Source: a virus
Taxonomy: Duplodnaviria > Caudoviricetes
Reading direction: 5' to 3' (one strand)
Length of the DNA: 61,976 bases
IMG/VR virus record: IMGVR_UViG_3300043788_000036
Span: 1 to 61,976 of that record
This document shows, piece after piece, positions 8,078-61,236 of the stretch. Position 1 is the first letter of the stretch, and each line of letters opens with the position of its first letter. Made by a program: the position numbers and the translations under genes. The notes under the pieces are model-generated. The model worked only from the letters and a program-made list of their open reading frames with translations, was not told where the DNA came from and did not search any database.

Positions 8078-8298
8078 TTGACCCGCGCCACGTGTCGCTT
8101 ATCCAGTGGACCGATGCGGTGAACCTTGCGTTGTCTACGAAGGGGCCCGTGACCAAGTTGTCTGGAGACGATTGGTCTTTGTGGGCGTATAACATGATAT
8201 CTATACCGTCTATTGCATCGTTTTCACCTCCTGACCCGCGTCACTACACCGATTGGCGCACGTGGGCGGAGCGCTTTGTTGAGTGCGTACTGCTATGA
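8074..8298 (+). CDS. Small Trp-rich phage protein
   Basis: Overlapping start and stop codons on both sides. Confidence 0.6.
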   Translation: MIDPRHVSLIQWTDAVNLALSTKGPVTKLSGDDWSLWAYNMISIPSIASFSPPDPRHYTDWRTWAERFVECVLL

Positions 8299-9914
8299 CT
8301 TACCAAGTGCCTTACTCGCTATTGACCAAGGCGGCTAACAACTATGCGGGTAGTGCCGCCCCCGGGGATATTTACGGTATCTACTCGGGGCTGTCTTCAG
8401 GTACCCCACAGGGGTACCTGGGGGCCGGGGCAAACGCCGCAAAACTGTATGGTACTTGGGCGGACGACTCCGCAATAGGGCAAGGGGCAGGGACCGCATT
8501 AGGCGCCCTAGGGGTTGCAGGGGGTATAGAGAAGGGCGGCGTTGCGGGGGATACGCAAGCCGCTGTTGGAGCGGCTCAATTAGCGGATCAGGCAGGAACC
8601 GCAGCAGGGGCTACCGGCGCAGAGATGACTGCGTTGGACACCATTGGAGAGTACGCCCCGATAATTGGCACCGCTCTACAGATGTACGAGGCGGTTAATA
8701 GCCCTGCGGTTAAGATGACCCCCGGGTACTACCAGCGCATGGCACAGGACATTGGCGACCCCAACAGTCCTAACCATCTCGGCTCCATGATGGAAGCCAA
8801 TGCGTCCAGCGACCCTGCAGAACATGCGTTGTTGCAAGCGTATGGCATTACCCCGGATCTTCACCCGCCTACTACCGATTATCAACCCTGGCAGTGGTAT
8901 CAATCCCCTGACAATTCAACCTTGCAAAACGGCGCTCGGCCATCGATCCGTGCTGCCGCTGGTGGAAGTATGACCGATAAAAATATTCATAGCCGACTGA
9001 AAGAGTTGTACGAAGGCTCCTTTGCCAAGCGCCACTATGACGATGGCGGAGGGGTTAGTTACGCTAATACCGGGCCGACGTGGTTACCGAGCATAGATCC
9101 TACATTCTCCAGCGACGCGACGCCTGGAGTATCTCAACCTACCCCTAGTGTCTATGACTACGGCGGGAGCAATTATTCGAATAGCGGAAGTGGGGGAAGC
9201 GGCGGTTCCAGTAGCGGCAATAGCAGTAGCGTACTCGGGCCGGGGGGTTCCCTGAGCGGGCTTGGTAGCCTCCTTGGAGTCTCTTCCATGGGGCAACTCG
9301 TGCAGCAGTACGGAGCCCTTGCCCCGCTCATTGCAGCCGCTCTCGGCGGCAATAAGCCTGCATCGGCGCCGGGCACTCCTGCCGGATACGGCGCTATCCC
9401 CAGCGTCTCGGCATCTAATTACTCGCGCCCGTACACGCAGCCGCAAGTGGCTAACTGGTACACGTACGGGGAAGGACCCGAGCAAAGCTTTTTCGGTAAC
9501 AATCAGACCCCCTATGTACCCGGAGTGTCCCCGGCCAGCGCAGCGCCTGGAGCATCCTCGCAGGGTTCTTCTCCTGCTTCTGCCCCGTACATGGGGGGTC
9601 CTTCCCCAGGGGTTCAAATGCGTGCGCAGGGCGGTAGCACTTTTGATTCAACACAAGGCGATAGTTATGTACAAGACCCAGGCGCCGGCAATGGTACCTC
9701 TGATGATATCGACGCCAAGCTTTCTGGGGGCGAGTACGTCATGGACGCCGGGACCGTTTCTATGTTGGGTAACGGATCAAACGAGGCAGGCGCCCGAGCT
9801 TTGGACCAACTTCGGCAGAGGGTGCGGCAGCACGCTGGCAAGCACCTCGTCAAAGGCAAGCAATTTATGAAAGCCAAAGCCCCAGAAGCGTACTTGAAGG
9901 GGGGTAAGACGTGA
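8295..9914 (+). CDS. Internal virion protein with AxGG motifs and a C-terminal GxGTSD..LSxGEYV module
   Basis: ATGA overlap at 8295; low-complexity modules separated by AAAGG, YDDGG, RAQGG. Confidence 0.65.
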   Translation: MTYQVPYSLLTKAANNYAGSAAPGDIYGIYSGLSSGTPQGYLGAGANAAKLYGTWADDSAIGQGAGTALGALGVAGGIEKGGVAGDTQAAVGAAQLADQAGTAAGATGAEMTALDTIGEYAPIIGTALQMYEAVNSPAVKMTPGYYQRMAQDIGDPNSPNHLGSMMEANASSDPAEHALLQAYGITPDLHPPTTDYQPWQWYQSPDNSTLQNGARPSIRAAAGGSMTDKNIHSRLKELYEGSFAKRHYDDGGGVSYANTGPTWLPSIDPTFSSDATPGVSQPTPSVYDYGGSNYSNSGSGGSGGSSSGNSSSVLGPGGSLSGLGSLLGVSSMGQLVQQYGALAPLIAAALGGNKPASAPGTPAGYGAIPSVSASNYSRPYTQPQVANWYTYGEGPEQSFFGNNQTPYVPGVSPASAAPGASSQGSSPASAPYMGGPSPGVQMRAQGGSTFDSTQGDSYVQDPGAGNGTSDDIDAKLSGGEYVMDAGTVSMLGNGSNEAGARALDQLRQRVRQHAGKHLVKGKQFMKAKAPEAYLKGGKT

Positions 9915-11152
9915 GCACTCCAGGTAGCGCACTGAGCTTCTTGTTCCAAGGGCAAACCCCCGCGCAGGGTACTAACTACTCGCAGAATCAGAGTAACGTA
10001 CCCACATGGCTGCAGGAGTACACGCAGGGCGTACTGGCGCAGTCCAACGCTCTTGCATCTCAACCGTACCAAACATACGGTGGGCCGCGCATTGCGGGGT
10101 TCACTGGGCAGCAGACCCAAGCACAGAACGAGGTGCAGGGACTTCAGGGGCAATACCAACAGCCCCTGAATCAGGCGCAGAGTCTCGCACAATCATCCGC
10201 GCAGCCCGGAGCTATTCAAAGTGCTCTGGGGTATCTCCCTCAAGCACAGCAGGGCATTCAAGGCGCCTTGGGTACCGCTAACACCGGGTACGGGGCGGCA
10301 CAGTCGTATTTGCCCCAAGCTAGCAACATGATTCAACAGGCGATTGCCCCCACCGCGGCGCAAATGAACCCGTACGCTCAGAACGTCATCGGACAGGCAG
10401 AGACCCAAGCGCAGCAGTTTTGGCAGAACCAGTTGCAGCCCTCGATCGACCAGCAATACGCGGCCGCGGGGCAATCGGGCTCCAGTGCAGACCTCCGCGC
10501 GCAGGAGGAGCAGGCGAATCAGCTGACGGAGAACATCCAGGCGACGGGCAACGCAGCCTTGGGGCAAGCGTATACCGCCGCCCAGAATGCGGGCCTGGCT
10601 GGCGCGCAGCAGGAGGCAGGTCTTGGATCGCTACAAGCGGGGATCGCCGGTCAGCAGGGCTCTCTGGGGCTTCAGGGGGCCAGTTCTTTGGGTAACCTCG
10701 CACAAGTGGGTGGGGGGCTTGGGTATGAGCAAGGGGCGTTGGGACTGCAGGGGGCCAGTACCCTCGGTAACCTTGCGTCTACCGGGCAGTCCTTAGGGTT
10801 GCAGGGGGCGGGGGCGCTCGACACGACTGGCGCCGAGCAGCAGAACCTGAACCAGCAGAATTTGAGCTTGGGATACCAGGATTTCTTGAATCAGCAGCAG
10901 TACCCCTATCAGCAGGCCTCTTGGGAGTCTCAGATGCTAGCGGGTACGGCCAACCCAACCAATACTCCCGGCATGACGCAAGGCGCACAAACATCGTATG
11001 CGCCCTCCGTGGGGCCATCGCCCCTCAGTCAGTCGCTAGGGCTTTATGCGGGGCTGAACTCGGGGCAGGTCGGCAGTGCGCTAGGCGGGTACGCTCGCGG
11101 GGGGCATGCTCGGCGCCGTCCCGGTGTCCTAGAGGCTATGCGGAGGGGGTAA
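9911..11152 (+). CDS. DNA-ejection / pilot protein (Q/G/A-rich)
   Basis: YQTYGGPRIAGFT, MNPYAQNV, YQDFLNQQQYPYQQ; YARGG near the C-terminus. Confidence 0.7.
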   Translation: MSTPGSALSFLFQGQTPAQGTNYSQNQSNVPTWLQEYTQGVLAQSNALASQPYQTYGGPRIAGFTGQQTQAQNEVQGLQGQYQQPLNQAQSLAQSSAQPGAIQSALGYLPQAQQGIQGALGTANTGYGAAQSYLPQASNMIQQAIAPTAAQMNPYAQNVIGQAETQAQQFWQNQLQPSIDQQYAAAGQSGSSADLRAQEEQANQLTENIQATGNAALGQAYTAAQNAGLAGAQQEAGLGSLQAGIAGQQGSLGLQGASSLGNLAQVGGGLGYEQGALGLQGASTLGNLASTGQSLGLQGAGALDTTGAEQQNLNQQNLSLGYQDFLNQQQYPYQQASWESQMLAGTANPTNTPGMTQGAQTSYAPSVGPSPLSQSLGLYAGLNSGQVGSALGGYARGGHARRRPGVLEAMRRG

Positions 11153-12481
11153 ATGTCTACACCAGAAGATCAACTAGACCCAGACAACGCGCCGACACAA
11201 GGTGTACTGTCTGCGTTGCAGCAGCCGACGCAATCGCCGGAGGGGCGCGCGTGGGGGGATGCATACCTCAAAGCTCACCCACAAGGAATCGACACGAGCG
11301 GGGAAGACTCGCTCCTTAACGACTTTGCCGCAAGCGCGGAAGATGCACGCACGACTCTGCGGCAGGCACGAGAGAAGTTGGCGGCGCAGCGCATGGACCC
11401 CAGTGTATTGGGGCTGCGGGTTGCTCAGTCGCTCCTATCTCCTTCCAAAGGGGGCGTACCTGACCAATTCAGCAAGGCGTTTGGAGACGTAGCCGACTGG
11501 CGCCAACAGAATCAGGCATTCCAGCAACAGCAAGGCGCGGGGGATTTAAACCTCGCGCAGCAGCTCAATGATACAGATAAGCAGCAATTACAAGCGCGCT
11601 TAGCACTACAAAAGCTTCGTGAACAGACCGGCTCTCAGTTGTTGGGCACAGCACTGAAAGCGACTGCTGCCCCTCAAGGACATTTTTCTCTTGTAGAAAA
11701 AGCCACTGCGTTACCTGATGGGTCTCCAGGCAAACAGTCCTATGTCGTAGACTCATCTACCGGAAATATAACTCCCTACGGTAAACCTGCACCGGTACCT
11801 AAAACAAGTGCTACTGCTATAGGACCGATACCCCCCGAACTACAAAAAGCGGTAGACGAAGGTAGACTTGACCCTACGCGCATCAATAGCCGTACTGCAC
11901 CTATCCTCTCACAACTTGCCGTAGGTAACCCTACGTTAGATTTCAACCGCATGCACTCTGACGCAGCGCTGCAGGCTAACTCAGCATTCCAGCAGAAAGC
12001 ATTAACGTTAGAAACTATCCCAGACATTTTGAAGCAAGTTACCGACGCGGGTAAAAAAGTTGGGTACTCCGATGAGCGTACAGTAGGTAAAATGCAGGCA
12101 TGGGCTAAAGGGGAATTTAACGACCCTGACTACACCGCGTACATGACGAAGCGTAACGATGCTCTAATGAATATTGCGAGCGTCATGCGTGGACAAGGTA
12201 TGTCGGACCAAGCACACAAAGCAGAGGTAGAAGCGGCCGCCCCAACCCTGTCACCAAAGGCGCTGGATGCGTGGTTTAACGCCCAGTACGAATTGTTGCA
12301 GCCTAGGCTAGCCCGTACTCAACAAATTACCCACCACACTACACCGACTACCCCCAGTAGTGGGGAACCTCCTGTATCGGCTGCGGCTCCTGTACAGATA
12401 AGTACTGACGATGAGTACAATAAATTACCGTCAGGCGCTTTGTTTATAAGCCCTGACGGGCACACACGGAAGAAACCGTAA
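11153..12481 (+). CDS. DNA-ejection protein
   Basis: Helical, Q-rich; ends STDDEYNKLPSGALFISPDG..RKKP. Confidence 0.6.
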   Translation: MSTPEDQLDPDNAPTQGVLSALQQPTQSPEGRAWGDAYLKAHPQGIDTSGEDSLLNDFAASAEDARTTLRQAREKLAAQRMDPSVLGLRVAQSLLSPSKGGVPDQFSKAFGDVADWRQQNQAFQQQQGAGDLNLAQQLNDTDKQQLQARLALQKLREQTGSQLLGTALKATAAPQGHFSLVEKATALPDGSPGKQSYVVDSSTGNITPYGKPAPVPKTSATAIGPIPPELQKAVDEGRLDPTRINSRTAPILSQLAVGNPTLDFNRMHSDAALQANSAFQQKALTLETIPDILKQVTDAGKKVGYSDERTVGKMQAWAKGEFNDPDYTAYMTKRNDALMNIASVMRGQGMSDQAHKAEVEAAAPTLSPKALDAWFNAQYELLQPRLARTQQITHHTTPTTPSSGEPPVSAAAPVQISTDDEYNKLPSGALFISPDGHTRKKP

Positions 12482-15159
12482 TGCCTGCGTGGGAAAATGC
12501 GCCAATTGTGAAAGCGGCAGATTCAGGCCCTGCGTGGGCTAATGCGCCAGTAATTACCCCCTCTACTCCTCCAGCGGAGCCCAAAGAATACGACCCTGTA
12601 CCTCAGGGGGGAAAAGCGCCTGAGGGCTTCTATGCAGTAACGGGAGACGACGGTAAACAAACACTGCGAAAGAACCAGAGCTTCGGCGACATTATCGCAT
12701 CTTTGAATAACCTTCCAGGTATGGGACTCGCGGAGCATGCGGGGGCCGGACTCGTCAACTTGGGCGGGAAAGCGGTCAGCGGGCTTGCAGGGATTTTATC
12801 TGGGGGTAATCCCGACACAGTGCGACAAGTACAGGACACACTACACGTAACGCCCCCACAGTCTAACGACCCGATTTTACAGGGGATGGGCGCGCTGAAC
12901 CGCGGAGCTGAAGCTGTTGCAGCTCCCGTAGATAAAGCGGTGGGTAACTTATCACCCGGAGCGCGTACCGCGATTGAAGCGACCGAGGAAGCGATACCGG
13001 ATGTTGCAAGTGTCTTGGGCATGCGAGGCGCAATACCTGAGTCGACGGCTACTCAAGCTATTGCACGCTCTGCACAAGATGTTGCAAAGGAAGTTGGGTA
13101 TACCGGACTAAGTACTAAAGCTGACTTAATGGCGCCGGGTAATCAAGCGATTACCGATACGATGATCGCGAAAGATTCAGGGATGCTATCGGGGCAGACT
13201 CCAAGCATCACAGCTTTAGATAATGCAATGAAGATTGGTCCGGCTAAGGTTTATCGCCAAGCTGAGAAGGACATTCCTCAGCAACTCACTATGCGGGGGG
13301 ACCCCCTGCAAGATGCGCTTAAGAACCTCCCCAATCAAACGAGTACTCTTCCACGCTCACCTGACGTGGAAGCGCTCCAAGAGACCATGTTGGCTAAACC
13401 CGATTTCACTCGGGACGAGCTATTTGCCAATATACGAGAAGCGCGAGATAGAGCTAAAGCTAATTGGAAATCAGACCACCCCGACCACGGCGCGCTGGGG
13501 GATGCCTACTACGCACTGGCTAATGCGTATGAAGACTTTGCAGGCAGGCAACTTGAGTCTGTAGGTAGTGATGTGTCCCTCGCAGATTGGCAGGCTGCGC
13601 GTACGCAAATGGCGAAGAACTATCAGGCACGTGCGGCACTGTCCGGGCCACAGGGGGGAGAGCACTTCAATGCGCAAGCGTACGCTAAGATAGCAGAGCG
13701 AAATCCCGGCTTACTCACTGGGGATGCTGCATTAGTTGGTCACGTGGCTAAGAGCCTACCCACTACAGTAGCTCCTGGCGTAGTACCTGACTTAACGGGA
13801 GCTGCAGCGCAAACTGCTGGATATATACCTTTCGTTGGTCCTATGCTCAAAGCAAAGTTGGAGCAGCTGCGCACGCGCGGTAACTCCGCACTACCTCCAG
13901 GTACTCAGAGTAATCCTGCTCTGAGTTACTTCTTCCCGCAGGGCAAGAATCCCCCGCCTGGCTGGGGCCGCGCACCGTCAGCGCCTCCACAATTCGGTGG
14001 GTATCTGCCTTCTCCTGCCATGGTGAATGCAGGAGGCGGTATGTCGACGCAGAATGCTCTGGAAGCCCTGGGGCTTACTCCAGACGTGCGTGCCGCCGGG
14101 GCACTTCACCCAGGCGCGGAGCGACTCCAGGCGCTTCGGGAACAGGTTTCGCAGCCCCCTATGGAAAATATTGAACCGCCACGTACCCAAAAGTGGGGGG
14201 AGTTTTCTCTTTCTCCACAAGGGGCTCCTCAAGAGGGTATCCCCTTTGCAAATGTCCTTGAGCACAAGCCGCCGCCCGGGGGAACTCCGATCCTCGCGCA
14301 AGGCCCTCCTCCGGGCGCTTCCGACGCCCAGATCAATTTTAGGAACAAGCTAGCGGCTGACCGCCTACGCAAGCTCGCAGGGGATCTCCGCATGGAGGGG
14401 CCAGGGGGCGCAATAGGAAGCCCACTGGACCGCGCACGAGCCGCTCTGCAACGTAGGCAGGCCCCACCACCACAAGCCGGTCAGGAGTCCTTTGACGACC
14501 TTATGCGCTCACTGCATGGGGTGACGGGGGAACCGCCGCAAGGATTCGCGAAGGGGGGCAGGGTACGCGCCTTCAAAGGCATCCCGATCGTGCGCGAGAT
14601 TAAGGCATGGCCGCGGGACAAAGACGGCGGCTATATCCAGCCGGACAAAATCACCCCTGAGCTTGCGGTGATCATGGCGCACAACTCAGAACGCGCAGTC
14701 AATCAAGCACAGTTTGCTACAAGCAAGTGCGGTAACCAACACACGTATGACCCTACGGGGGATACTATTTGTTGGCACTGCAATCAGTACGATAAGGAAA
14801 ATAACGACTGCGAAGTGATTATTGATATTGTCGCCGGCCTGGATGGAGATATCCAAGAAGCCAGTAGTTGCAGACATTTCGAAACCATTCGCGCAGGCGA
14901 TTGGGAAGTCAAACTTAAGCGTATGACCAAAGCTGCGGCAATGTTTGGTACCGCAAAGAATGGAAAGGGTTTTGGGTGCGGCAGTAAACAAAACCAACGC
15001 TGCGGCTGGCGACGTACCAGTAAATGGGGTACAGATCTTTACGGCGATGACACTGAATGGTGCAGTGCGTACTTTATGCCTACAGAACCTACGGGTTGCT
15101 GCGCGATCAATAGCACCCCTACCTTACCGGACGGAACTCCACTCAAGAGGAAACACTAA
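12481..15159 (+). CDS. Large ejection protein with C-terminal Cys-rich (HiPIP-like) extension
   Basis: Repeated PAWxNAP N-terminus; FAKGG at aa 689; 10 Cys in the last ~145 aa. Confidence 0.6.
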   Translation: MPAWENAPIVKAADSGPAWANAPVITPSTPPAEPKEYDPVPQGGKAPEGFYAVTGDDGKQTLRKNQSFGDIIASLNNLPGMGLAEHAGAGLVNLGGKAVSGLAGILSGGNPDTVRQVQDTLHVTPPQSNDPILQGMGALNRGAEAVAAPVDKAVGNLSPGARTAIEATEEAIPDVASVLGMRGAIPESTATQAIARSAQDVAKEVGYTGLSTKADLMAPGNQAITDTMIAKDSGMLSGQTPSITALDNAMKIGPAKVYRQAEKDIPQQLTMRGDPLQDALKNLPNQTSTLPRSPDVEALQETMLAKPDFTRDELFANIREARDRAKANWKSDHPDHGALGDAYYALANAYEDFAGRQLESVGSDVSLADWQAARTQMAKNYQARAALSGPQGGEHFNAQAYAKIAERNPGLLTGDAALVGHVAKSLPTTVAPGVVPDLTGAAAQTAGYIPFVGPMLKAKLEQLRTRGNSALPPGTQSNPALSYFFPQGKNPPPGWGRAPSAPPQFGGYLPSPAMVNAGGGMSTQNALEALGLTPDVRAAGALHPGAERLQALREQVSQPPMENIEPPRTQKWGEFSLSPQGAPQEGIPFANVLEHKPPPGGTPILAQGPPPGASDAQINFRNKLAADRLRKLAGDLRMEGPGGAIGSPLDRARAALQRRQAPPPQAGQESFDDLMRSLHGVTGEPPQGFAKGGRVRAFKGIPIVREIKAWPRDKDGGYIQPDKITPELAVIMAHNSERAVNQAQFATSKCGNQHTYDPTGDTICWHCNQYDKENNDCEVIIDIVAGLDGDIQEASSCRHFETIRAGDWEVKLKRMTKAAAMFGTAKNGKGFGCGSKQNQRCGWRRTSKWGTDLYGDDTEWCSAYFMPTEPTGCCAINSTPTLPDGTPLKRKH

Positions 15160-15971
15160 TGCCTTGGACACCCAAAGACGCTTTGCGCCATACGAAGAAG
15201 GCTACCTCGGCAAAAGCACAACGCCAGTGGAGCGACGTATCCAATAGTGCTTTATCGAGGGGCGCTTCTGAAGGATCCGCGATACGCCAAGCCAATGCCG
15301 TTGTAGGTCGTCGCAAATACGCAGACGGAGGCGAAGTGCCCCGGGGGTCTTCCTCACCAGGCACCCCTGGGGTATCGGGGGCGGTACGAGACGCCCTTGC
15401 CGCGTTGCGCGACTATGCTATAGATCGTCCGCGGCGGGAAATTCAAGCCGCTAAGGAACAGCGGGAAAACTCTATTATTGACGACACGGCCCCCACTACC
15501 CCTGCGCAAACGAACTACGCCGCGGGAGGAGCTATATCTCCTCTTGCGGCGCAGGTGGGTAACCCAATGCAAATGCGCTCTACCTTGCCCAAGTTAGGCA
15601 ACACTAACCCAATGGGTATGGGGCACATGCGCATGCCCCATGTCCCCCTTGGCGGCACGCTACACAATATAGACCAACACATGGCCGGGGCTAGAATGAA
15701 GCTACCCTCACTAAAGGCTGCGATAGGAGGGGCCATACCCCCTCAACAATTACCGCCGCAGGCCATTGCAGTCGTAAAGCAAGCCATTTCACACCTTGCG
15801 AACAAAGACGCCTCTTCCGCGGCCGCTACTTTGCGTTCGTCACCAGAAGCTATGCGCTATCCTACCGTACGACATGCGGAGCACGCCCTACGGACGTCTC
15901 AGAGGCTTGCGCCAGCTAATCATGGGCTAGCACAGGTAGCTTCCACAGAGCAGCCGCTTACGGGGCAATAG
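15159..15971 (+). CDS. Probable virion cargo protein with ChaB-like N-terminus and AxGG motifs
   Basis: MPWT..AQRQW..VSNSAL..AIRQANAVV; YADGG, YAAGG, AAIGG. Confidence 0.5.
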   Translation: MPWTPKDALRHTKKATSAKAQRQWSDVSNSALSRGASEGSAIRQANAVVGRRKYADGGEVPRGSSSPGTPGVSGAVRDALAALRDYAIDRPRREIQAAKEQRENSIIDDTAPTTPAQTNYAAGGAISPLAAQVGNPMQMRSTLPKLGNTNPMGMGHMRMPHVPLGGTLHNIDQHMAGARMKLPSLKAAIGGAIPPQQLPPQAIAVVKQAISHLANKDASSAAATLRSSPEAMRYPTVRHAEHALRTSQRLAPANHGLAQVASTEQPLTGQ

Positions 15972-48452: not shown

Positions 48453-48665
48453 GTGAACGTAGATAGCTTTGTCAGCGTACTGCTTGCAGTCATCGGCGGA
48501 TTGCTGATGATTGTTTGGGGGATGTTGACGTATGAAATACGGCTATTACGTAAGGCTGTGCACCGTACGCGTAACGGGCTGCACGCTGTGAATATTATTG
48601 TTAGTATTTTGGCTAAAAAGCAGGGCTTGGATTGGGCCAACCCGTCTCTTGAGGATAAAGACTAA
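48453..48665 (+). CDS. Small membrane protein
   Basis: N-terminal TM segment. Confidence 0.55.
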   Translation: MNVDSFVSVLLAVIGGLLMIVWGMLTYEIRLLRKAVHRTRNGLHAVNIIVSILAKKQGLDWANPSLEDKD

Positions 48666-51288: not shown

Positions 51289-51645
51289 ATGACTGACGAA
51301 GTAAAGACTGTAGCTAGTGCCCAGAATACTGCGCTCCCGCACACAGACCCCGCAGGGCTGCAGAATGCTGGAGCACAAGCGGCGGGTACGCAAAACGCAG
51401 CAGCTCAGCCCGCGGAGCACCCGTCTTCCGGGTGGTGGAAGCCGGGCACCGCTCCTGTAGGGTCAACGCCCCACGCAGTGGGAGATGTAGTATCTACCTC
51501 CGTCGCTTCACTGGAAGCGCGGCTCACGGAGTTGGAAAACGTTGTGCACGCAATTGCCCCTTACAGCCGCAATGCTGCGCATAGTGGGGTGGTGAAGTGG
51601 GTTGAGAAGATCGGGGCGCGAATCAAGGCGGCGGTGAAACTGTGA
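51289..51645 (+). CDS. Hypothetical protein
   Basis: GAGG RBS before ATG 51289. Confidence 0.55.
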   Translation: MTDEVKTVASAQNTALPHTDPAGLQNAGAQAAGTQNAAAQPAEHPSSGWWKPGTAPVGSTPHAVGDVVSTSVASLEARLTELENVVHAIAPYSRNAAHSGVVKWVEKIGARIKAAVKL

Positions 51646-51911
51646 ATTTCGGGGATGCACTTGCGCTGCTGAAGGCAGGAAAACGGGTACAGCGCGCAGG
51701 CTGGAACGGCAAGGGAATGTTTATATTCCTGGTGCCTGGATCGACGTTCAAAGTGAATCGTCCGCCGTTGCTCGGAATTTATCCTGAAGGCACTGAGATT
51801 AGATACCACGGCCATGTGGACATGAAGACGGCTGACGGGATGGTGGTCCCTTGGTTATGTTCTCAGACAGACATGCTGGCTGAGGATTGGGGCCTATATG
51901 AGGGGGGATAA
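51642..51911 (+). CDS. tad2: DUF2829/Tad2-family anti-defence sponge
   Basis: MNFGDALALLKAGKRVQRAGWNGKGMFI..VPWLCSQTDMLAEDW. Confidence 0.85.
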   Translation: MNFGDALALLKAGKRVQRAGWNGKGMFIFLVPGSTFKVNRPPLLGIYPEGTEIRYHGHVDMKTADGMVVPWLCSQTDMLAEDWGLYEGG

Positions 51912-52218
51912 AGTTGGTAATATCGACGAAGCCCAGAAGGCTTTAGAACAGGCCCTTATTGACTTGCTCAACGCGCAGGATAGTCAGGGGCGTAAGGTAC
52001 GATTAGGGGGTGACTACAACGAGTTACTGAAACACTTTAATCATGTACGTAAGTGGTTTGAGCCCCCCTTTGCATTTGTTGGAGGAGACTTAGAGAAGGC
52101 AGCCGCTTTGCGTAACTTGGCGCTTTTATCTACCGCTTATGCTGCTTACTTAGAGTACTTTGCGGTAGGTGGGGTACCGCTCTCAACTATAGATGACGTA
52201 CTCAAGGGGGTACTGTGA
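51898..52218 (+). CDS. Helical hypothetical protein
   Basis: Overlaps both neighbours. Confidence 0.5.
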   Translation: MRGDKVGNIDEAQKALEQALIDLLNAQDSQGRKVRLGGDYNELLKHFNHVRKWFEPPFAFVGGDLEKAAALRNLALLSTAYAAYLEYFAVGGVPLSTIDDVLKGVL

Positions 52219-52421
52219 GGGATGAAAAAGCCTCCAACCAGGGGGCGCCGTTGTCGCAAGAGCAGCAGCTTTACCTGAAAGAGCTACAAGCGGTGGAAGC
52301 TGACTTCTGTACCTTGTGTAGCAAGATCGGCACGGGCCGCGAGTTATCGTTAGCAGCTACCAACATGCAGCAGGCGGCCATGTGGGCCGCGCGTCATGTG
52401 CTGGGGGGTAGCTTTAAATAG
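52215..52421 (+). CDS. Acb2/Tad1-like helical-hairpin protein
   Basis: LSQEQ..GRELSLAATNMQQAAMWAARHV. Confidence 0.65.
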   Translation: MRDEKASNQGAPLSQEQQLYLKELQAVEADFCTLCSKIGTGRELSLAATNMQQAAMWAARHVLGGSFK

Positions 52422-52472: not shown

Positions 52473-52847
52473 ATGGCGGATAAGTACGGTGGGCCGGTCA
52501 ATAAGCACCAAGAATTGGCGCAGACCGGGCACGTGGACGGGTACGCAAAAGGCGGCTCCGTGCATCATTCTAGCGGAGGACATACGTCGATGAAGCACGA
52601 GAACCAGCACCACGGGCACGGCAAGCATGGGCACAAGGGTCCGCATGAACATTACACTTCCCCTGGCGGGGGTGAGCACAGCGGACACAAGGGTAACAGC
52701 GTGCATACCCTTGTAAACCAAGGGAAAAATACCCCCGAAGAGCTGTACCACACGCACACGACTGACATTGAGACGGACGGCGGCGGAGACCATAGCTCGG
52801 GCAGCGACGCGCCGCGCGGTACGGGCAGCACGCGTAACCGCATCTAG
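52473..52847 (+). CDS. His/Gly-rich disordered protein with YAKGG motif
   Basis: GAGG RBS; HHGHGKHGHKGPHEH. Confidence 0.65.
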   Translation: MADKYGGPVNKHQELAQTGHVDGYAKGGSVHHSSGGHTSMKHENQHHGHGKHGHKGPHEHYTSPGGGEHSGHKGNSVHTLVNQGKNTPEELYHTHTTDIETDGGGDHSSGSDAPRGTGSTRNRI

Positions 52848-53068: not shown

Positions 53069-53587
53069 TTGGCGTATCGAGATGAAGTTGAAGCTGCGCG
53101 AAAGCTGAAGACCACTTCGCGAGAAGTCCCGCTCGAAAAGCTGGAGCACCTCGCAGTGGCGAAGTTCGCCAAGTCATCCATCGCCTACGATTCTCTGGAG
53201 CAGGCCTTTCCGACGGCGGACCCGGGGCTTATCCCGTTCGGTACGGATGTCCTAGTGCAGATCCGGACGCCGCGCACGCGGACCAAGGGGGGTATCTACT
53301 TACCCGAGGAATCGCGCGAGACGGACCTTTGGAACATGCAGGTTGCGAAGGTGATCCGAATGGGTCCGGTCGCATTCTGCAATCGCGAGACGCTCAAGCC
53401 GTGGCCAGAGGGCCAGTGGTGCACGATTGGTGATTTCGTGCGCGTGCCCAAGTACGGCGGCGACCGCTGGTGGGTCGATGTGCCGGGCAGTGAGGACGGT
53501 AAGGCTCTGTTCGTGTTGTTTGATGACCTCGTCATGAAGGGGCGCATCCCCGACGACAAGGTGCTTGACATGGTGGCGTACATCTGA
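53069..53587 (+). CDS. groES: GroES-like co-chaperonin
   Basis: PFG.DVLV..TKGGIYLP..AKVIRMGP..GDFV..KYGG. Confidence 0.85.
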   Translation: MAYRDEVEAARKLKTTSREVPLEKLEHLAVAKFAKSSIAYDSLEQAFPTADPGLIPFGTDVLVQIRTPRTRTKGGIYLPEESRETDLWNMQVAKVIRMGPVAFCNRETLKPWPEGQWCTIGDFVRVPKYGGDRWWVDVPGSEDGKALFVLFDDLVMKGRIPDDKVLDMVAYI

Positions 53588-53642: not shown

Positions 53643-54701
53643 ATGGCAGACAAAGACACCGAAGAAAAAATCACCCCTGTAGGGCCGGGCGTTGAGGATG
53701 AAGCCTCGACGGGCGCTACGCGCGAGGAAGAAGACCTCGATCAAGGGTATTCCTACGAAGACAGGGAAGACGAGCCGCGCACTGCGGGGGATGAGCGCAC
53801 AGGGCACGCCGAGGAAGAGCTTGGAGAGGCTGATGAGCGCGGGCTGACCCGGGAGCAGAAGAAGCGCAGGAAACGGCGTGAGCGCTACGACGCGGCGGTA
53901 CGCGAGCGCGATTTCTACCGTGCACGCGCGGAGCAGCTTGAAGCGGAGCGTCGTCGAGACCTTGCGGCGCTTGAGTCTAGGCAGACCCAGACTGATGTGC
54001 TTACCATTGACGGGCGCATCCAGCAGGCCGAGAACGATATCCGCGAGGCGGAGTCGCTTTACGTCCAGGCGCGCCGCAACAACGACCCTGAAGCCGAGAT
54101 TGAGGCGACGCGCGTCCGCGAGCAGCTCCAGCGGGGTTTACAGCAGCTCCAGCACACTAAGAACCAGACCGTAAGGGGCGCGCAGGAGCGGCGCACGCAG
54201 CAGACACAGCCCTCCGGTATGGATCCTGAGATTGCTGCGCAGGCGAGCGGCTGGATGCGTCAGAACACGTGGTTTGATCCCCAGCTTCGCGATGAAGACT
54301 CGGCTATCGCACATGCGGTGGAGCAGCAGGTAGCACGCGAGCGTCGGTTTTCTCCGCGGACCCGCGAGTACTGGGACGAAGTCGATCGTCGCGTCGCCAA
54401 GCGCCTCCCTGATCGTTACGAGTCCCGTGAGCGCGGCCCGGACGATGAGGACGAGGAAGATGAGGAGGCGCGCCGCCCCGCGCGGCGAGCGAACGGCAAC
54501 GCACCTGCGCGCAAGCCATCTGGCCCCACTATCAAAGTGGCGGGCCGGGAGCGCCCTCTGCGTAAAGGCGAAGTTTTCATCGATGAGGAGCGCAAGCAGG
54601 CTCTTATCGAAGCAGGTAAGTGGGACGATGAAGTCGCGAGAAATCGCGCACTGAAGTACTACCAGAATTATGACCGGGCCGCTGGCAGGCGTCCGAGATA
54701 A
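53643..54701 (+). CDS. Capsid scaffolding protein (probable)
   Basis: Acidic N-terminus, long coiled coil, W..QNTWF; position. Confidence 0.65.
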   Translation: MADKDTEEKITPVGPGVEDEASTGATREEEDLDQGYSYEDREDEPRTAGDERTGHAEEELGEADERGLTREQKKRRKRRERYDAAVRERDFYRARAEQLEAERRRDLAALESRQTQTDVLTIDGRIQQAENDIREAESLYVQARRNNDPEAEIEATRVREQLQRGLQQLQHTKNQTVRGAQERRTQQTQPSGMDPEIAAQASGWMRQNTWFDPQLRDEDSAIAHAVEQQVARERRFSPRTREYWDEVDRRVAKRLPDRYESRERGPDDEDEEDEEARRPARRANGNAPARKPSGPTIKVAGRERPLRKGEVFIDEERKQALIEAGKWDDEVARNRALKYYQNYDRAAGRRPR

Positions 54702-55289: not shown

Positions 55290-55321
55290 CGGATGACTTT
55301 CTCATCTGTGAGGCTCCTACC

Positions 55322-56008: not shown

Positions 56009-56041
56009 CACTCCGCAACTTAACGCCACAGGAGATTTACT

Positions 56042-56962
56042 ATGGCACTTCCAATGCGGAGTACAGACTTCCGCTCAGTCGTTGAGCCAATCCTCAACGA
56101 GACTTTCGATGGCATTTACGACCAACGTGCGGATGAGTGGAAGCTCATCTTCCGCGAGTTCCGCGGTACCCCCCGTAACTACCACGAGGAACCGGTGCTC
56201 TTCGGTATGGGTGCTGCGCCCGCGTTGCCAGATGGCACCCCGGTCACGTACCAGTCGGGCGGAGTGCTCTACATCCAGCGCTACCTGTATGCAGTCTTCG
56301 GGTTGGCTTTCGCGCTGACCAAGGTACTGGTCGAAGACGGCGATCACATCAAAATCGGCACTATTTTCGCCGAGCACTTGGCGCAGTCGTTGGTTGAGAC
56401 GAAAGAAGTTCTATGTGCGAATGTGCTCAACAACGGCTTCAACGCGGCTTTCCCGGGCGGTGACGGCGTTGCACTGATCGCGACGAACCACCCCTTGGCG
56501 CCGCCGGCAGGGTCGTTCAGCAATCAGCTCACGACGGCTGCAGCGCTTTCGCAGACCTCGCTGGAGCAAATGCTCATCCAGATCCGCAACGCCGTGGACA
56601 ATAACGGTAAGCGCATTCGGCTGACTCCGCTGCAGCTCGTTACGTCGCCTTCGAACGTGATGCAGGGCGAGGTGCTCTTGAAGAGCGTCCTACGGGCAGG
56701 TACTGCTAATAACGACGTCAACCCCATCAAGTCGTTGGGGCTGTTGCCGAAGGGTCAGGCGAATATCTCGCGCCTCACGTCGCAGACTGCTTGGTTTGTG
56801 CAGACAGACGTGCGTCAGGGGCTGAAGCTCGCCATGCGCCGCACGTTGGAAAAGAGCATGGAAGGGGACTTCGAGACCGACTCCATGCGCTATAAAGCGA
56901 CAGAACGGTACATTCCGTCGTTCACGGACCCGAGATGCCTCTACGGCACGCCGGGCCTCTGA
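56042..56962 (+). CDS. Major capsid protein
   Basis: EPILN..F, LAFALTK..EDG, ANVLNNGF, GGDGVAL..HP, EGDFETDSMRYKATERY..DPR..YGTPG. Confidence 0.9.
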   Translation: MALPMRSTDFRSVVEPILNETFDGIYDQRADEWKLIFREFRGTPRNYHEEPVLFGMGAAPALPDGTPVTYQSGGVLYIQRYLYAVFGLAFALTKVLVEDGDHIKIGTIFAEHLAQSLVETKEVLCANVLNNGFNAAFPGGDGVALIATNHPLAPPAGSFSNQLTTAAALSQTSLEQMLIQIRNAVDNNGKRIRLTPLQLVTSPSNVMQGEVLLKSVLRAGTANNDVNPIKSLGLLPKGQANISRLTSQTAWFVQTDVRQGLKLAMRRTLEKSMEGDFETDSMRYKATERYIPSFTDPRCLYGTPGL

Positions 56963-57365: not shown

Positions 57366-57377
57366 AGGTGCATTAAC

Positions 57378-58148
57378 GTGTTCGACGGACAAGTAGCTAG
57401 GTTTTATCCCGGGGCGACAGACAGCTCGCCTAACACTATTTTTTCGGATATCTACGCGCTTGATCGTACGAGCAAGCTGCATGAGTATCTGAATGACTTT
57501 GATAGTTTTGGTGCCGGCGACTGGACTATTACAGGTGCGGGTTCTCAAGTGCTAACTGCAGGGGACGGTGGCCAGCTTGCGATTACTAGCCCAGTTAGTG
57601 CTTTCCAATCCTTGCAGAAGAATCCCGCTAATTTCCAACTTGTACAGGGTTATAGAAGTTGGTTTAAGACTATCGCCAAGTTAGATAGTCTGCTGGGTAA
57701 TACGCTGACGGGGTTACTCAATATCACCGCGACTCCGTTTACCGGGGCTAGTCAAACTGACGGTATTTGGTTCACGACCGACGTGACTACGGGAGAAGTG
57801 CGCGGCAACGTGGGCACGGCTGGCGTTATCCAAACCGTGGACCTGGGCGTGCAGATTATAGCCGGGCAGTTTTACCAGCTCGCCTACTACTATGAGGGTA
57901 ATGTGTACAGCCTTGCCCCCAATGGCAAGGTGATATTTGAAGTCACTACCGCGCCTACTTCCTTAGTGCCCGCTGTAACAGCCCCTGCGAGGGCGGAAAT
58001 CTCCCCGGGAGCGGGGTTCCCAGGGGCCACACTGCTGGCTCCCACCTTGGCGGTAAACGCCTCTACCGCAGTAGCCCGGGTGTATACCGTCGACTTGTTC
58101 TACGCCTCCAAAGACCGTACCAACATAAATATGACCCCTCCGTTCTAA
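57378..58148 (+). CDS. Virion beta-sandwich protein, paralog 1
   Basis: YLNDFD, NITATPFTG..DGIWF, TAPAR, KDR..TPPF. Confidence 0.65.
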   Translation: MFDGQVARFYPGATDSSPNTIFSDIYALDRTSKLHEYLNDFDSFGAGDWTITGAGSQVLTAGDGGQLAITSPVSAFQSLQKNPANFQLVQGYRSWFKTIAKLDSLLGNTLTGLLNITATPFTGASQTDGIWFTTDVTTGEVRGNVGTAGVIQTVDLGVQIIAGQFYQLAYYYEGNVYSLAPNGKVIFEVTTAPTSLVPAVTAPARAEISPGAGFPGATLLAPTLAVNASTAVARVYTVDLFYASKDRTNINMTPPF

Positions 58149-58173
58149 ACCATTATCGGGAGATTGTTACCCC

Positions 58174-58965
58174 ATGTTTGACATTCAGGTTAGCCGGTAC
58201 CCGTTCGGGGGCAACAATACCCGAGACAGTGAGCTGTTTTCGGACCAGCCGGTAGACGACTGGACCAAGAACCACAATTACTTCCAAGACTTTGACGACT
58301 ATTTTGGCCCTACTGCGGTAGGCACTGCGGGCGGCTTTACGCTTTCTAGCGGAGGGGCTGCGACGGTCACCCAACCCAACGTAGACGGGGGGGTTATCAG
58401 CTTAAATGCTGTAGCCTCTACTGCAGCCTCCTTACAGAAACAGGGTCATTTCTCGGTCAAGGTAGGGTTGCGCACATTTTTTCGCCAGCTGATCTCAGTC
58501 GATAACGTCTTGGGGCTAGTGTTGGCAGGAATGACCAATGTTACTGCTACCCCGTTCACTGGGGGGCAGCTCACAGACGGGTTTTGGTTTTCGTCTACTA
58601 ACACTGGAGCGCTCAGCTTCAACGTCGCCACAGGCGGAGTAGTCACCACACAGGCGTGCGGGGTTAGCCTAGTCGGGGGTAACTTTGCAACCTTGGGGGC
58701 TTATTGGGATGGAGGGCTATACTCTCAGCATCAGCCGGGCGGCGTAATTGTATGGGAGTGCGCTCCGCCCCCATTCGGGCTTACCTCAGGGTTAACTGCC
58801 CCCGCGCGAGGGTCTGTCCCCGCCCCCACTAACTTCCCCAGTGCAGCCCTCCTCGCGTTCCTGTCTGGCGTCAACCCGTCCACCGCAGCTGCGCGGGCGC
58901 TTCAGGTGGACTACTGGTACGGCCTGAAAGATCGAAATGACTTCGAGCAGACGCCTACTTTCTGA
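58174..58965 (+). CDS. Virion beta-sandwich protein, paralog 2
   Basis: YFQDFD, NVTATPFTG..DGFWF, TAPAR, KDR..TPTF. Confidence 0.65.
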   Translation: MFDIQVSRYPFGGNNTRDSELFSDQPVDDWTKNHNYFQDFDDYFGPTAVGTAGGFTLSSGGAATVTQPNVDGGVISLNAVASTAASLQKQGHFSVKVGLRTFFRQLISVDNVLGLVLAGMTNVTATPFTGGQLTDGFWFSSTNTGALSFNVATGGVVTTQACGVSLVGGNFATLGAYWDGGLYSQHQPGGVIVWECAPPPFGLTSGLTAPARGSVPAPTNFPSAALLAFLSGVNPSTAAARALQVDYWYGLKDRNDFEQTPTF

Positions 58966-58972
58966 GGTTTAA

Positions 58973-59605
58973 ATGCGCCCAATCACCCAAATTAGAACTC
59001 TGGCCGCAGCAGCGGTTGGGGCTATTTGCGCTGCCCAGACTACGGCCGGGGCGGGTAACCTCGTTATCAACGGTTCGCTGGCTTCCGGAGGGGTTGCTAC
59101 GCTTTCTGCGCAGCAAATTCTGGGGGTCACTTCCGCAGGTAACCTCTCGGCAGTCAACTTTACGATTACCGGTACGGACGATCAAGGCCGGGTAATTGCC
59201 CAGACGATTGCCGGCCCCAACGCTAATACGGTGCAGACCACCCTCAATTACCGCACGGTCACTAGCATTGCAGTTAGCGCTGCGGTAGGCACTAACGTTA
59301 CTGTAGACACTTTGCAGATCGGGGCTTCTATCGAAGTGCCCCTCGATCAGTACGTGACACAGTTCAATGTATCGATTGCGGTAGAAGTGACGGGTACCCT
59401 CAACTACGTCATGCAATTTACTTTCGATGATATTTTCGGGGGCGCTCCGGGACCGTTCAATTGGATTAGCAGTACGGTAGTCGTTAGTGCGACTAGTGCC
59501 AACACCAATGGCACATTGATTTCGCCCGTGCGCGCAGTTCGTTTACTGACTAACTCAGGTAGCGGCACCGGGAAGATGCTTGTTATTCAAGGTGGACTAA
59601 CGTGA
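58973..59605 (+). CDS. Virion structural protein
   Basis: FTITGTD..G..IAGPNANTV; PVRAVRL. Confidence 0.65.
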   Translation: MRPITQIRTLAAAAVGAICAAQTTAGAGNLVINGSLASGGVATLSAQQILGVTSAGNLSAVNFTITGTDDQGRVIAQTIAGPNANTVQTTLNYRTVTSIAVSAAVGTNVTVDTLQIGASIEVPLDQYVTQFNVSIAVEVTGTLNYVMQFTFDDIFGGAPGPFNWISSTVVVSATSANTNGTLISPVRAVRLLTNSGSGTGKMLVIQGGLT

Positions 59606-60552
59606 CCAACCCTGTAGAGGGAGGGGGTATCCAGGGGGGCATGAGTACCTCGCCTACAGACATTCAGGTGTTTACCTCGCCTGGGGGTACCTGGGTAAAG
59701 CCTGGGGGCACTCCTTCGTGTACTCGCGTGATCTGTCTGGGCCCCGGGGCAGGAGGGGGGTCTGGCGCATCTATTGGTCCCGGCACGGCGTGTTCAGGAG
59801 GCGCAGGGGGCGGTGGGGGCGAATGCATGGAGATCACCTTCCCGACGAGTACTCTACCTGCAACGGTGTCGGTTACAGTTCCTACTGGAGGGCAAGGAGG
59901 CGCTTCGGTGACCGGCGCGGTCGGCGCCCCGGGGGTGGTAGCGGTCAGTAATACCCTCTTCGGTGTCTATGCTACGGGTTACGCGGGGGGCGCTGGCCAA
60001 GGGGGCGCGTCAGCCGCTTCAAGTGCGGGTGGGGGCGGCGGGGGTATTGCGGGGGCGGGCGGTACTGGGGCGTCGGGCGTCGGCGGCGCTGGAGGCCCTG
60101 GGGGCGGCATAACCGGAGGCGTCGGGGCGTCCACGGTAAATGCGGCAGGGCTCATTGCAGGAGGTGGCGGTGCCGGTGGCTCATCCGGAGCAGGCGGAAA
60201 CCCCGGAGGTAACTCCGGATACGGTGGAACAGGGGGCGGTTCTGGGGGTGGATTAGCTGCAGTCCCGGTAGCGACTTCTGGAGGCAATGGAGGAACTTCC
60301 CCGGGTACCCCTTGGGATATACTTGCGGCAGGTAGTATGGGTGTGGGCAGTGGCGGTAGTAACGATGTTGGGTTTGTTGGAGGCTCTGCAGGGGCAGGTG
60401 GAGCTTCTAGCGCTGTTGGGGCGGGTTTTGCGGGCGGCGCAGGCGGTTATGGTTCTGGTGGAGGAGGCGGGGGTAGCGCTATTGCTACTCAGGCGTCGGG
60501 TCCCGGAGGTGCTGGGGGTGCGGGTCTTTGTGTTGCGATCACCATATTTTAG
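59602..60552 (+). CDS. Glycine-rich fiber/spike-like protein
   Basis: QVFT..GTWVKP..VICLGPGAGGGSG..GGAGGAGLCVAIT. Confidence 0.65.
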   Translation: MTNPVEGGGIQGGMSTSPTDIQVFTSPGGTWVKPGGTPSCTRVICLGPGAGGGSGASIGPGTACSGGAGGGGGECMEITFPTSTLPATVSVTVPTGGQGGASVTGAVGAPGVVAVSNTLFGVYATGYAGGAGQGGASAASSAGGGGGGIAGAGGTGASGVGGAGGPGGGITGGVGASTVNAAGLIAGGGGAGGSSGAGGNPGGNSGYGGTGGGSGGGLAAVPVATSGGNGGTSPGTPWDILAAGSMGVGSGGSNDVGFVGGSAGAGGASSAVGAGFAGGAGGYGSGGGGGGSAIATQASGPGGAGGAGLCVAITIF

Positions 60553-60555
60553 AGG

Positions 60556-61236
60556 TTGACCATGTCAGGTTTCAAAGACACGACCCGGACCGTCCGCGGC
60601 CACCACAATTGGGGTGGTGGGTCTGTTGGTAGCAGTACGGGTGGAACGATCAACCGCTTGGCGCGCGGGGGGTCGATCGACAAGATCGATTCTGACCCGG
60701 GACACCCGGAGATTTACCCTAAAGAGGGTAATCGCACGAAGGGCACCTCTGCGACCCTGCGTAAGGAGTCTCCCACGCAAGAGCTTGAGGAGCACGGCGG
60801 TAAGACCCCCCTCATCTCGAAGTTCAAGAAAGGGGGTGCTACCAAGCACTTCCATGTGCATAAGCACTTCCATGCGAAGGGCGGGCGTACGCGCACGGTG
60901 AGTCGGTCGTATAGCACTGCAGAAAAGCAGGCAGAGACCTACGCAGACGGGGGGCACGTCCATGACGATACGCATATTCCTGCGGGCTACCCCGACTACA
61001 AAAAGGGGGGCAAGACCCGAGCCCCGGTCAAGAAGAACGCTGGAGGGGCGATGTATGCGCCGGGCGGCGCCGTGGGCGCCCCCGTCATGGGGGGCCCGAC
61101 CCCAAGCCCCCTGAGCGCCTTAGCGGCCCGTCCGCGGGGGCTCCCCATGCGCCCGCAGCTCCCCATGCGCAGACCTGTCGCAGCTCCGGGGCCTCAACTG
61201 GCCATGCGCGCGCGCGGCGGCGCGATGAAGAAGTAA
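60556..61236 (+). CDS. Basic disordered protein with eight GG motifs (start 60556 or 60562)
   Basis: LARGG, FKKGG, HAKGG, YADGG, YKKGG, KNAGG, YAPGG, RARGG. Confidence 0.7.
   Translation: MTMSGFKDTTRTVRGHHNWGGGSVGSSTGGTINRLARGGSIDKIDSDPGHPEIYPKEGNRTKGTSATLRKESPTQELEEHGGKTPLISKFKKGGATKHFHVHKHFHAKGGRTRTVSRSYSTAEKQAETYADGGHVHDDTHIPAGYPDYKKGGKTRAPVKKNAGGAMYAPGGAVGAPVMGGPTPSPLSALAARPRGLPMRPQLPMRRPVAAPGPQLAMRARGGAMKK

Follow-up and report, generated by a model that had tools for sequence, protein, structure and literature searches.

The virus record IMGVR_UViG_3300043788_000036 (Duplodnaviria; Caudoviricetes), a complete record of 61,976 bp with a CheckV completeness of 100%, was analysed over its whole length, hereafter called the window. 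It contains six late open reading frames (ORFs), designated here by their start positions, whose products share a short motif centred on two glycine residues: the 8283, 9911, 12481 and 15159 ORFs, which form a single block (8283–15971), the 52473 ORF and the 60556 ORF (Table 1). The motif reads roughly [G/R]-[Y/F/H, sometimes L/M/R]-[A/K]-x-G-G-x-[V/I/M/T], and the six proteins hold about 19 copies of it. It is a real tag, conserved at the level of the protein and limited to a specific set of late proteins; its copies sit at module borders, that is, in predicted linkers, at breaks of homology and at cassette edges, often near C-termini, and it is shared with tape-measure proteins.

In the late order, the block follows an SU10-type tail adaptor, a nozzle-sized protein of 762 amino acids (aa; the 3579 product) encoded directly after it, and the structural protein at 6515–8077. 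The order of adaptor, nozzle-sized protein and internal proteins is T7-like. Because of this order, and because no tail-tube or sheath family was found, we treat the phage as apparently short-tailed; Pfam and PHROG-type family scans recognised no tail-tube, sheath or tape-measure chaperone family among the 100 ORFs. The 8283, 9911, 12481 and 15159 products would then be a four-gene ejection block and are probably injected proteins. No credible Pfam or NCBIfam family was found in the six motif proteins, and neither a megablast search with 8283–15971 nor a tblastn search with the 12481 product gave a match in the phage collection.

Table 1. Motif-bearing genes, motif copies and other features of the window
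Feature	Position	Strand	Remarks
Predicted ejection protein with tape-measure-type C-terminal end, 543 aa	8283..9914	+	GTG start at 8283; ATG at 8295
Degenerate copy AAAGGSM, 8283 ORF	8952..8972	+	Orthologues ARGGSM or ARGGHM
Degenerate copy YDDGGGV, 8283 ORF	9036..9056	+	FADGGSY in the L008 orthologue
Tape-measure-type module, 8283 ORF	9621..9911	+	RAQGGST (9621) ... TSDDIDAKLSGGEYV ... YLKGGKT (9891-9911)
Predicted Gln/Ala-rich ejection protein, 413 aa	9911..11152	+	PHROG 4287 "DNA ejection protein", E 2.5e-4
Copy YARGGHA, 9911 ORF	11090..11110	+	20 residues from the end of the product
Large ejection-type protein, 892 aa	12481..15159	+	Conserved body to about aa 660-714, motif, Cys-rich C-terminal domain
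Copy FAKGGRV, 12481 ORF	14545..14565	+	Junction of body and putative cargo
Cys-rich C-terminal domain, aa 700-892, 12481 ORF	14578..15156	+	Variable putative "cargo" after the motif
Basic protein, 270 aa, pI 10.6	15159..15971	+	Three copies
Copy YADGGEV, 15159 ORF	15318..15338	+	Left cassette edge (cassette aa 54-126)
Copy YAAGGAI, 15159 ORF	15516..15536	+	Right cassette edge; A-x-G-G invariant in 7/7 aligned homologues
Degenerate copy AAIGGAI, 15159 ORF	15717..15737	+	Full [YF]ADGGEV copy beside it in three relatives
Small His-rich protein, 124 aa, 19 His	52473..52847	+	In the portal-to-scaffold gene cluster
Copy YAKGGSV, 52473 ORF	52542..52562	+	Identical in 3/3 homologues
Basic His-rich protein, 226 aa, pI 10.5	60556..61236	+	Seven clear copies and one weak copy
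Copies in the 60556 ORF	LARGG 60658, FKKGG 60823, HAKGG 60871, YADGG 60940, YKKGG 60997, NAGG 61033 (weak), YAPGG 61054, RARGG 61207	+
Lysozyme	1700-2146
SU10-type tail adaptor	2913..3575	+	Pfam PF24175, E 1.1e-20
Virion structural protein	6515-8077		PHROG 3287
Large terminase with intein	45471-48194
Portal	48665-51235
Cpn10/GroES-like protein	53069-53587		In the head module; N-terminal extension of ~50 residues
Scaffold-like, highly charged protein (from sequence)	53643..54701	+	Without motif
Major capsid protein, Mu gpT-like	56042..56962	+	Without motif

Enrichment and conservation of the motif

A sequence-only reading of the window had described about 16 copies in six proteins, and each of its sites was found again in the 8283 (8295 from the ATG), 9911, 12481, 15159, 52473 and 60556 ORFs. 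Twelve of these copies fit the regular expression proposed there, [FYLHR]-[AK]-x-G-G-x-[VITM], the remainder including degenerate ones (e.g. AAAGG, YDDGG and AAIGG). All 12 matches fall in five of the named ORFs, and the copy in the sixth, YARGGHA in the 9911 product, fails at the last position. One copy absent from that reading, YLKGGKT, was found at the very end of the 8283 ORF.

The regular expression was compared with per-protein shuffles (n = 1000) of 100 greedily called ORFs (19,808 aa). The 12 observed matches contrast with a mean of 0.99 and a maximum of 5 in the shuffles, none of which reached 12, although these figures are optimistic, the expression having been defined after looking at the sequence. 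For the shorter pattern [FY][AK]xGG, the 11 matches (mean of 1.56 in shuffles) were likewise reached by 0/1000 shuffles. Without the 60556 ORF, five matches to the regular expression remained vs 0.89 (reached by 4/1000 shuffles), and seven to the shorter pattern vs 1.42 (0/1000). The remaining 94 ORFs contained none and two matches, respectively, which corresponds to background, and shuffling within 30-aa blocks agreed with whole-protein shuffling. The bare A-x-G-G was not enriched (28 observed vs 22–26 in shuffles), and the signal therefore comes from an aromatic residue at −3 together with Val or Ile at +2. Since the pattern had been chosen post hoc, we also counted, without any pattern, the residues around isolated Gly-Gly pairs in 256 unique 14-mers from 39 proteins of the six motif families. 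Tyr at −3 reached 4.2 times the background, Ala at −2 2.4 times, and Val and Ile at +2 3.9 and 2.6 times, whereas the residues at −1 and +1 vary. This count and the conservation of the motif in homologues are independent support for it.

The copies could also be a by-product of Gly-rich, low-complexity sequence. The lack of enrichment of the bare A-x-G-G, the degeneracy of several of the 16 copies first described and the post hoc choice of the pattern would all suit such an origin by chance or composition, but the observed count was never reached by shuffling, whether whole-protein or local, the two proteins richest in Gly (29% and 36%) hold no copy, copies are conserved in homologues with as little as 25% identity, and an independent enrichment was found in 150 database proteins (see below). 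The shuffles and the conservation in homologues thus left this explanation unsupported, and we regard its probability as negligible.

Related viral contigs were collected by searching with three window proteins: the 6515 product gave 10 loci, the 12481 product gave two, and 80 of at least 596 loci were taken for the capsid protein; numbers preceded by L designate these and other related loci. Copies were found at the same places in the homologues of all six ORFs, with variation in copy number. The 9911 copy has a counterpart at the matching place in seven of eight homologues, two of them only 25–27% identical (LKKGGMV and LKDGGHV), and each copy of the 60556 product is conserved in a five-sequence alignment (A4). 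Among homologues, the frequency of [FY][AK]xGG per 1000 aa ranged from 15.9 for the 60556 product through 7.3 (52473) and 2.8 (15159) to 1.75 (12481). The codons differ between copies, as the sequence-only reading had noted, the twelve 21-nt sites having a mean identity of 52% (maximum of 76%). Recombination through DNA identity at the motif was considered and dropped, given this 52% identity. The motif is absent from the portal and the capsid protein of the window, as had also been claimed, and among homologues the 63 portal, 70 scaffold-like, 71 Cpn10-like and 29 terminase sequences held no copy and the 80 capsid proteins held one. Literature searches by the A-x-G-G spellings and by a GE[FY]V-type core together with tape measure found no phage paper naming the motif.

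The limitation of the motif to a set of late proteins and its absence from shell proteins are consistent with a docking or loading tag, that is, a peptide, perhaps a beta-hairpin at the Gly-Gly turn, that would bind a virion component (portal, nozzle lumen or scaffold, or the tube or hub of siphophages), so that its carriers would be loaded and afterwards ejected, multiple copies providing avidity. The position of the copies also suits such a tag. A copy was found within 25 residues of the C-terminus in 27 of 70 multi-copy ORFs, vs 16.6 by random placement (maximum of 26 in 1000 trials), a difference inflated by kinship between the ORFs. In three window proteins out of six, the last 20 residues include a copy, and the RARGG copy of the 60556 product lies three residues from its end. 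The same holds for the small carriers without any other recognisable feature, the 52473 and 60556 products and their analogues with up to nine copies: 42 of the loci found with the capsid protein reach 6 kb past the start of the capsid gene, and in 33 of them an ORF with at least two copies was found 1.5–6 kb downstream. On the other side, copies are scarce or missing in phages in which each conserved head-module protein has a homologue, and evidence from tape measures, given below, also bears on docking.

These downstream multi-copy ORFs encode basic proteins rich in Lys, His and Met, one of which has nine copies in 416 residues, and many copies in relatives read K-K-G-G-x-V. Three positional analogues of the 60556 ORF (L063:12266-13693, L019:12042-13127 and L079:11984-13234) have eight or nine copies together with extreme His runs (HHEHHEHHEHH) or Met-rich runs, which suggests metal binding. 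The label of KGG stress-protein repeat (PF10685) had no support for the 52473 and 60556 products, as no Pfam family matched them at E up to 10.

Module borders and tape-measure kinship

The position of the motif at junctions is clearest in the 12481 product. Ten Cys residues lie in the 193 residues from position 700, vs none in the first 699, and the switch in composition described by the sequence-only reading is thus present at FAKGG; the label "ChaB-like" used there for another switch had no Pfam match at E up to 10. In all four comparisons with orthologues, which carry one to four copies, the 12481 product loses similarity at FAKGG or within 30 residues of it. What follows FAKGG is the Cys-rich domain in the window and in L002, nothing in L006, and an extension with further copies in L005, L007 and L008. 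The Cys-rich domain, common only to the window and its 93% identical relative L002, had no Pfam match at E up to 10 and ESM Atlas scores of 0.80 or less, to unnamed clusters; it is a possible injected cargo.

In the 15159 product, the two full copies enclose a cassette that recurs in three contexts: it is N-terminal in the window and internal in L006, whereas L005, L007 and L008 have it joined to the end of the upstream gene. In the L006 homologue, the cassette is preceded by a block that stands behind it in the window. For the window, L005a and L006b, a check showed both cassette edges to be motif copies; the matches in L007a and L008a cover the cassette only partly. The motif also brackets a region bearing HExxH in proteins of 1,388–1,441 aa from related phages. 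Two large proteins encoded upstream of the terminase and portal genes (L084:49-4374 and L055:8-4174) have copies at module edges. The L055 protein starts with a domain that, judged by eye, is lytic-transglycosylase-like and is followed by the motif; the L084 protein has an HExxH near its C-terminus.

Two AlphaFold2 models were obtained, both of low confidence overall. In that of the 15159 product (seven aligned rows; mean predicted local distance difference test score, pLDDT, of 51), all three copies lie in coil between helices, with a pLDDT below 50, and in that of the C-terminal module of the 8283 product (50-row alignment; mean pLDDT of 57.5), the motif half scores below 50. The motif could accordingly be a passive linker, a favoured turn or hinge (aromatic, small, Gly-Gly, beta-branched) that tolerates insertions and swaps and eases threading and refolding, and that is read by no factor. 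Its position at homology breakpoints and cassette edges, in low-confidence predicted coil, the variable residues at −1 and +1 and the fact that relatives can do without it are all as expected of such a linker. We nevertheless consider this explanation rather unlikely, since Tyr or Phe at −3, Ala at −2 and Val or Ile at +2 are kept across families as far apart as those of lambda and this phage, an alignment of 50 sequences of the 8283-type module shows almost no variation at the upstream G-G, a linker has no need for eight- or ninefold repetition in short proteins, and the one mapped cut, in phage T5, falls exactly within the motif.

The 8283 product has a hydrophobic, Gly-rich stretch at about aa 316–358, with hydropathy maxima at aa 316–354, followed by a linker and then by a module of roughly 100 residues (aa 447–543 of 543), in which a GE[YF]V core lies between two motif copies: RAQGG ... 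G-N-G-T-S-D-D-I-D-A-K-L-S-G-G-E-Y-V ... YLKGG. Residues 464–542 match two PHROG tape-measure families, 6090 (E 5e-4) and 5448 (E 5.7e-3), and the homologue in Caulobacter phage GB2A is annotated as a tape measure. With tblastn, the C-terminus of the 8283 product found only eight phage records, BLAST being too insensitive here, and a profile search was needed. A profile built from the module region of eight phages (A3) matched, among PDB sequences, two tape measures: chain 8zdo_S (gp16, 1,699 aa), in which it was found twice (E 2.4e-10), and 8rk3_A of JBD30, where the match spans F-A-S-G-G-H-I ... SDSIP (E 0.12). By sequence, both resemble the 8283 module in the core G-x-G-[TQ]-S-D-x-I-x-A-x-L-S-x-G-E-[FY]-V, with F-A-S-G-G-H-I just before the core in JBD30. 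Among 1.84 billion proteins, the profile found 16,780 cluster representatives (50% identity clusters) at E of 1e-3 or less, so the module is very common. In the best 150 of these matches, it usually lies at the C-terminal end, nearly reaching it in most of them, with up to five copies per protein, and [FY]AxGG occurs 83 times vs 11.5 in shuffles (maximum of 21; 100 shuffles). The 8283 product carries a tape-measure-type module but is not a length ruler, that is, a long coiled-coil protein encoded beside tail-tube and chaperone genes: no tail-tube, sheath or chaperone family was found in the 100 ORFs, and the adaptor is of the SU10 podophage type.

A like layout is seen in the lambda tape measure gpH, which contains F-A-T-G-G-F-T (733–739), GEFV and Y-A-T-G-G-Y-V (778–784), in the same arrangement as RAQGG, GGEYV and YLKGG at the end of the 8283 product, in a Gly-rich region after a hydrophobic stretch. 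The two proteins differ in that gpH is the 853-aa ruler of a long tail, whereas the 8283 product has 543 aa and belongs to a phage without a recognised tail-tube gene. According to the passages on gpH in a report of November 2025 (PMC12617516), gpH is processed to gpH* and gpHC by removal of a ~14-kDa piece from the Gly-rich region near its end, the precise site and the catalyst being unknown, and gpHC residues of about 690–817, which bear the motif, were not resolved by cryo-electron microscopy. For JBD30, in the parts of PMC11445458 that deal with the tape measure, only the last 33 residues were built and the authors predicted a cut at residue 1066, which is not at the motif. If lambda behaved like T5, its cut would fall between F733 and A734 and free 120 residues, which is a prediction.

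Tape-measure cutting has been known in lambda and T5 for some fifty years. The T5 tape measure pb2 is cut after R1127 into pb2* and pb2C, between a hydrophobic stretch and the peptidase part (Linares et al. 2023, PMC10038345, in its description of pb2). The sequence at the cut is FVPR/AEGGMMYPG (the slash marks the cut), which places it between motif positions −3 and −2, directly before A-E-G-G. The option of a protease site, raised in the sequence-only reading, therefore gains its one experimental backing. R-A-x-G-G is kept in all five readable tape measures of the Demerecviridae, down to about 37% identity; a sixth, from an Aeromonas phage (vB_AdhS_TS3; L100, OP820700.1 100651-101319), was left out because stops interrupt the frame there. 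That stretch has no annotated coding sequence, and one of the stops is at the T5 cut position. T5 pb2 is like the window proteins in having x, then A-x-G-G-hydrophobic at a module border, and its element parts a hydrophobic, channel-forming part from an enzyme-bearing C-terminal piece, just as FAKGG parts the 12481 body from the Cys-rich domain. It differs in that T5 has a single copy, in one tail protein, whereas the ~19 copies of the window are spread over six proteins and the phage is short-tailed.

An observation on T5 also speaks for docking: once the phage has bound its receptor, the C-terminal part of pb2*, which runs up to the cut, occupies a crevice of the hub, and its continuation along a hub beta-hairpin was suggested by the authors (PMC10038345, in the part on pb2*). 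Only the last 35 residues of pb2C were modelled, according to the same part of that paper, and the unresolved motif regions of lambda and T5 fit a flexible element rather than a stably docked one. AlphaFold2 gave no fold for the motif regions, and the presence of the motif in tail-resident tape measures means that a head-specific receptor could not be general. We therefore consider docking unlikely, although the docking tag and the passive linker are both serious rivals.

The sequence-only reading had further proposed a cargo-addressing system of the phage head. Short peptides shared by proteins packed in the head and then injected are known in T4, in which N-terminal capsid-targeting sequences on internal proteins are removed by the gp21 prohead protease. 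The motif resembles these sequences in that idea, but in the window the copies lie inside the proteins or at their C-termini, copies near the N-terminus of multi-copy ORFs were rarer than expected (11 vs 17.2), a protease family was not recognised, and the motif is also found in tail proteins. A system private to the head did not hold: the same element is present in tail tape measures (twice in lambda gpH, and in JBD30 gp46 and T5 pb2), and relatives with the same head module can lack it.

Proposed cutting or flexing of ejected proteins

Severed or hinged modules are the best explanation of these observations, because the sole experimental datum, that from T5, shows that the element can be a cutting site. 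We give a probability of about 40% to the reading that the element is a junction at which ejected proteins are cut or flexed, either as the particle assembles or upon ejection, and it may be a variant of tape-measure maturation that has spread over many proteins. The motif would mark the joints and ends of proteins expelled through the tail, and what its carriers have in common would be that they pass through the tail and act in the host envelope, not that they reside in the head. As a point of both recognition and flexibility, it would allow a multi-module ejected protein to be severed or articulated during assembly or ejection. The freed modules, a channel-forming body, an enzyme or cargo domain and small basic peptides, might then act separately. 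The cutting agent would be a host factor or an assembly-dependent activity rather than one recognisably encoded by the phage. The occurrence of cutting in this phage, its timing and its agent are inferred.

Several points weigh against this reading. The experimental cut is known for T5 only, at one site in one distant phage. The residue before the cut (P1) is Arg in all five T5-family sequences, whereas in the window Arg is found only in RAQGG and RARGG, the other copies having Y, F, H or L; because of this difference between Arg and Tyr, Phe or His, one protease reading P1 cannot serve both T5 and the window. No protease family was recognised in the 100 ORFs. A docking tail or end-cap would suit the C-terminal copies better, since a cut there frees few residues. 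Only one of the ~19 copies (RAQGG in the 8283 ORF) is followed by the GE[YF]V module. The 52473 and 60556 products, both small, basic and His-rich and encoded in the head gene cluster, are candidate virion proteins by their gene positions. Lastly, Roseobacter phage CRP-901, whose capsid protein is 40% identical and whose capsid gene lies downstream of a gene annotated as a GroES-type co-chaperonin, shows a single loose match among 28 late proteins. Relatives that have these head genes, both close and distant ones, can thus do without the motif, which is not essential to this type of virion.

The lack of a recognisable prohead protease, noted in the sequence-only reading, was confirmed: Pfam showed no peptidase family in any of the 100 ORFs, and no protease gene was recognised between the portal and capsid genes. 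A scan for HExxH and HxxEH found only HLVEH (HxxEH) in the portal and HENQH (HExxH) in a His run of the 52473 product, neither of which is convincing. Cysteine proteases of the adenovirus and ubiquitin-like types cut after x-G-G; a site of this type was rejected, given the absence of clan CE and deubiquitinase-like Pfam families from the 100 ORFs and the position of the T5 cut before Ala. Self-cleavage was also dropped, which counts against cutting as well: Ala at P1' offers no nucleophile and excludes the usual Ser, Thr or Cys self-cleavage chemistry. Contrary to the earlier suggestion, the missing protease does not favour docking, because the T5 and lambda cuts too are made by unknown means, according to the passage on tape-measure processing in PMC12617516.

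A further rival is a chaperonin handle. The mobile loop of Cpn10/GroES has a K-x-G-G-hydrophobic part and binds GroEL through three consecutive hydrophobic residues. A handle that mimics this part and recruits GroEL to ejected proteins, which are metastable, T5 cutting then being GroE-dependent, seems very improbable to us. Many K-K-G-G-x-V copies in relatives resemble the loop, and the group has its own Cpn10-like gene in the head module, kept in 71 related loci and with a loop that reads TKGGIYLP in the window, but positions +1 and +3 of the motif are mostly polar, without the hydrophobic triplet of the GroES loop, and CRP-901 has a GroES-like gene and no motif. A 1973 study of host involvement in T5 tail-protein cleavage, cited in PMC3357383 as early evidence for chaperonin help in T5 tail assembly, is a weak point in favour of such a handle.

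A stronger form of the cutting reading, which we hold to be quite improbable, would make the motif a general "cut here" code for proteins expelled ahead of the DNA, read by an assembly- or host-dependent activity, possibly the GroE-dependent step reported for the T5 tail, with proteins of the 60556 type as polyproteins. If so, these proteins would yield about eight small basic peptides, rich in His and Met, that travel with the DNA, exchangeable enzyme or cargo domains would be released from the large ejection proteins inside the host, and the gpH cut would be fixed at the site given above.

Being shared by tape measures and by the ejection proteins of short-tailed phages, the motif yields a concrete and inexpensive prediction: mature fragments should begin with A-x-G-G, and gpH should be cut between positions 733 and 734. 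The motif is also a handle for spotting the ejected proteins of uncultured phages by sequence. If it marks exchangeable cargo, it would map what phages deliver besides DNA, here the Cys-rich domain and small His-rich proteins near anti-defence genes.

Neighbouring genes and relatives

Among cultured phages, the nearest relatives are RW, GB2A, RLK and KcrB of Caulobacter, whose capsid protein is 73% identical. Phage RW (proposed Riverwalkvirus, PMC11053796) shares the late gene order, and its 8283 homologue carries the module. It differs from the window in having six loose matches in 23 late proteins, of which MARGG (gp066c) and HARGG (gp080c) are the most motif-like. The passages searched in the paper on the RW group (PMC11053796) do not mention virion proteomics.

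The two very Gly-rich proteins mentioned above are encoded at 5864–6514 and 59602–60552, respectively; both lack the motif, and the former has a weak match to Gly_rich_2 (E 1.4e-4), below the Pfam cut-off. The intein-like insert of the large terminase consists of a Hint domain (aa 470–512) and a LAGLIDADG domain (aa 732–791), between the N- and C-terminal parts of the terminase. A Tad2-like gene (51642–51911; E 2.5e-26) and a gene with an Acb2/Tad1 hairpin domain (52215–52421; E 7.8e-11) lie between the portal and head genes, and these anti-defence sponge genes adjoin the gene for the His-rich motif protein at 52473. A second Tad2-like match (E 1.2e-14) was found within the early/middle region (16024–44188). 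The Pfam families of this region include NAPRTase/NAMPT and the N-domain of ribose-phosphate pyrophosphokinase (NAD salvage), CsrA, a DnaJ domain, uracil-DNA glycosylase and prim-pol.

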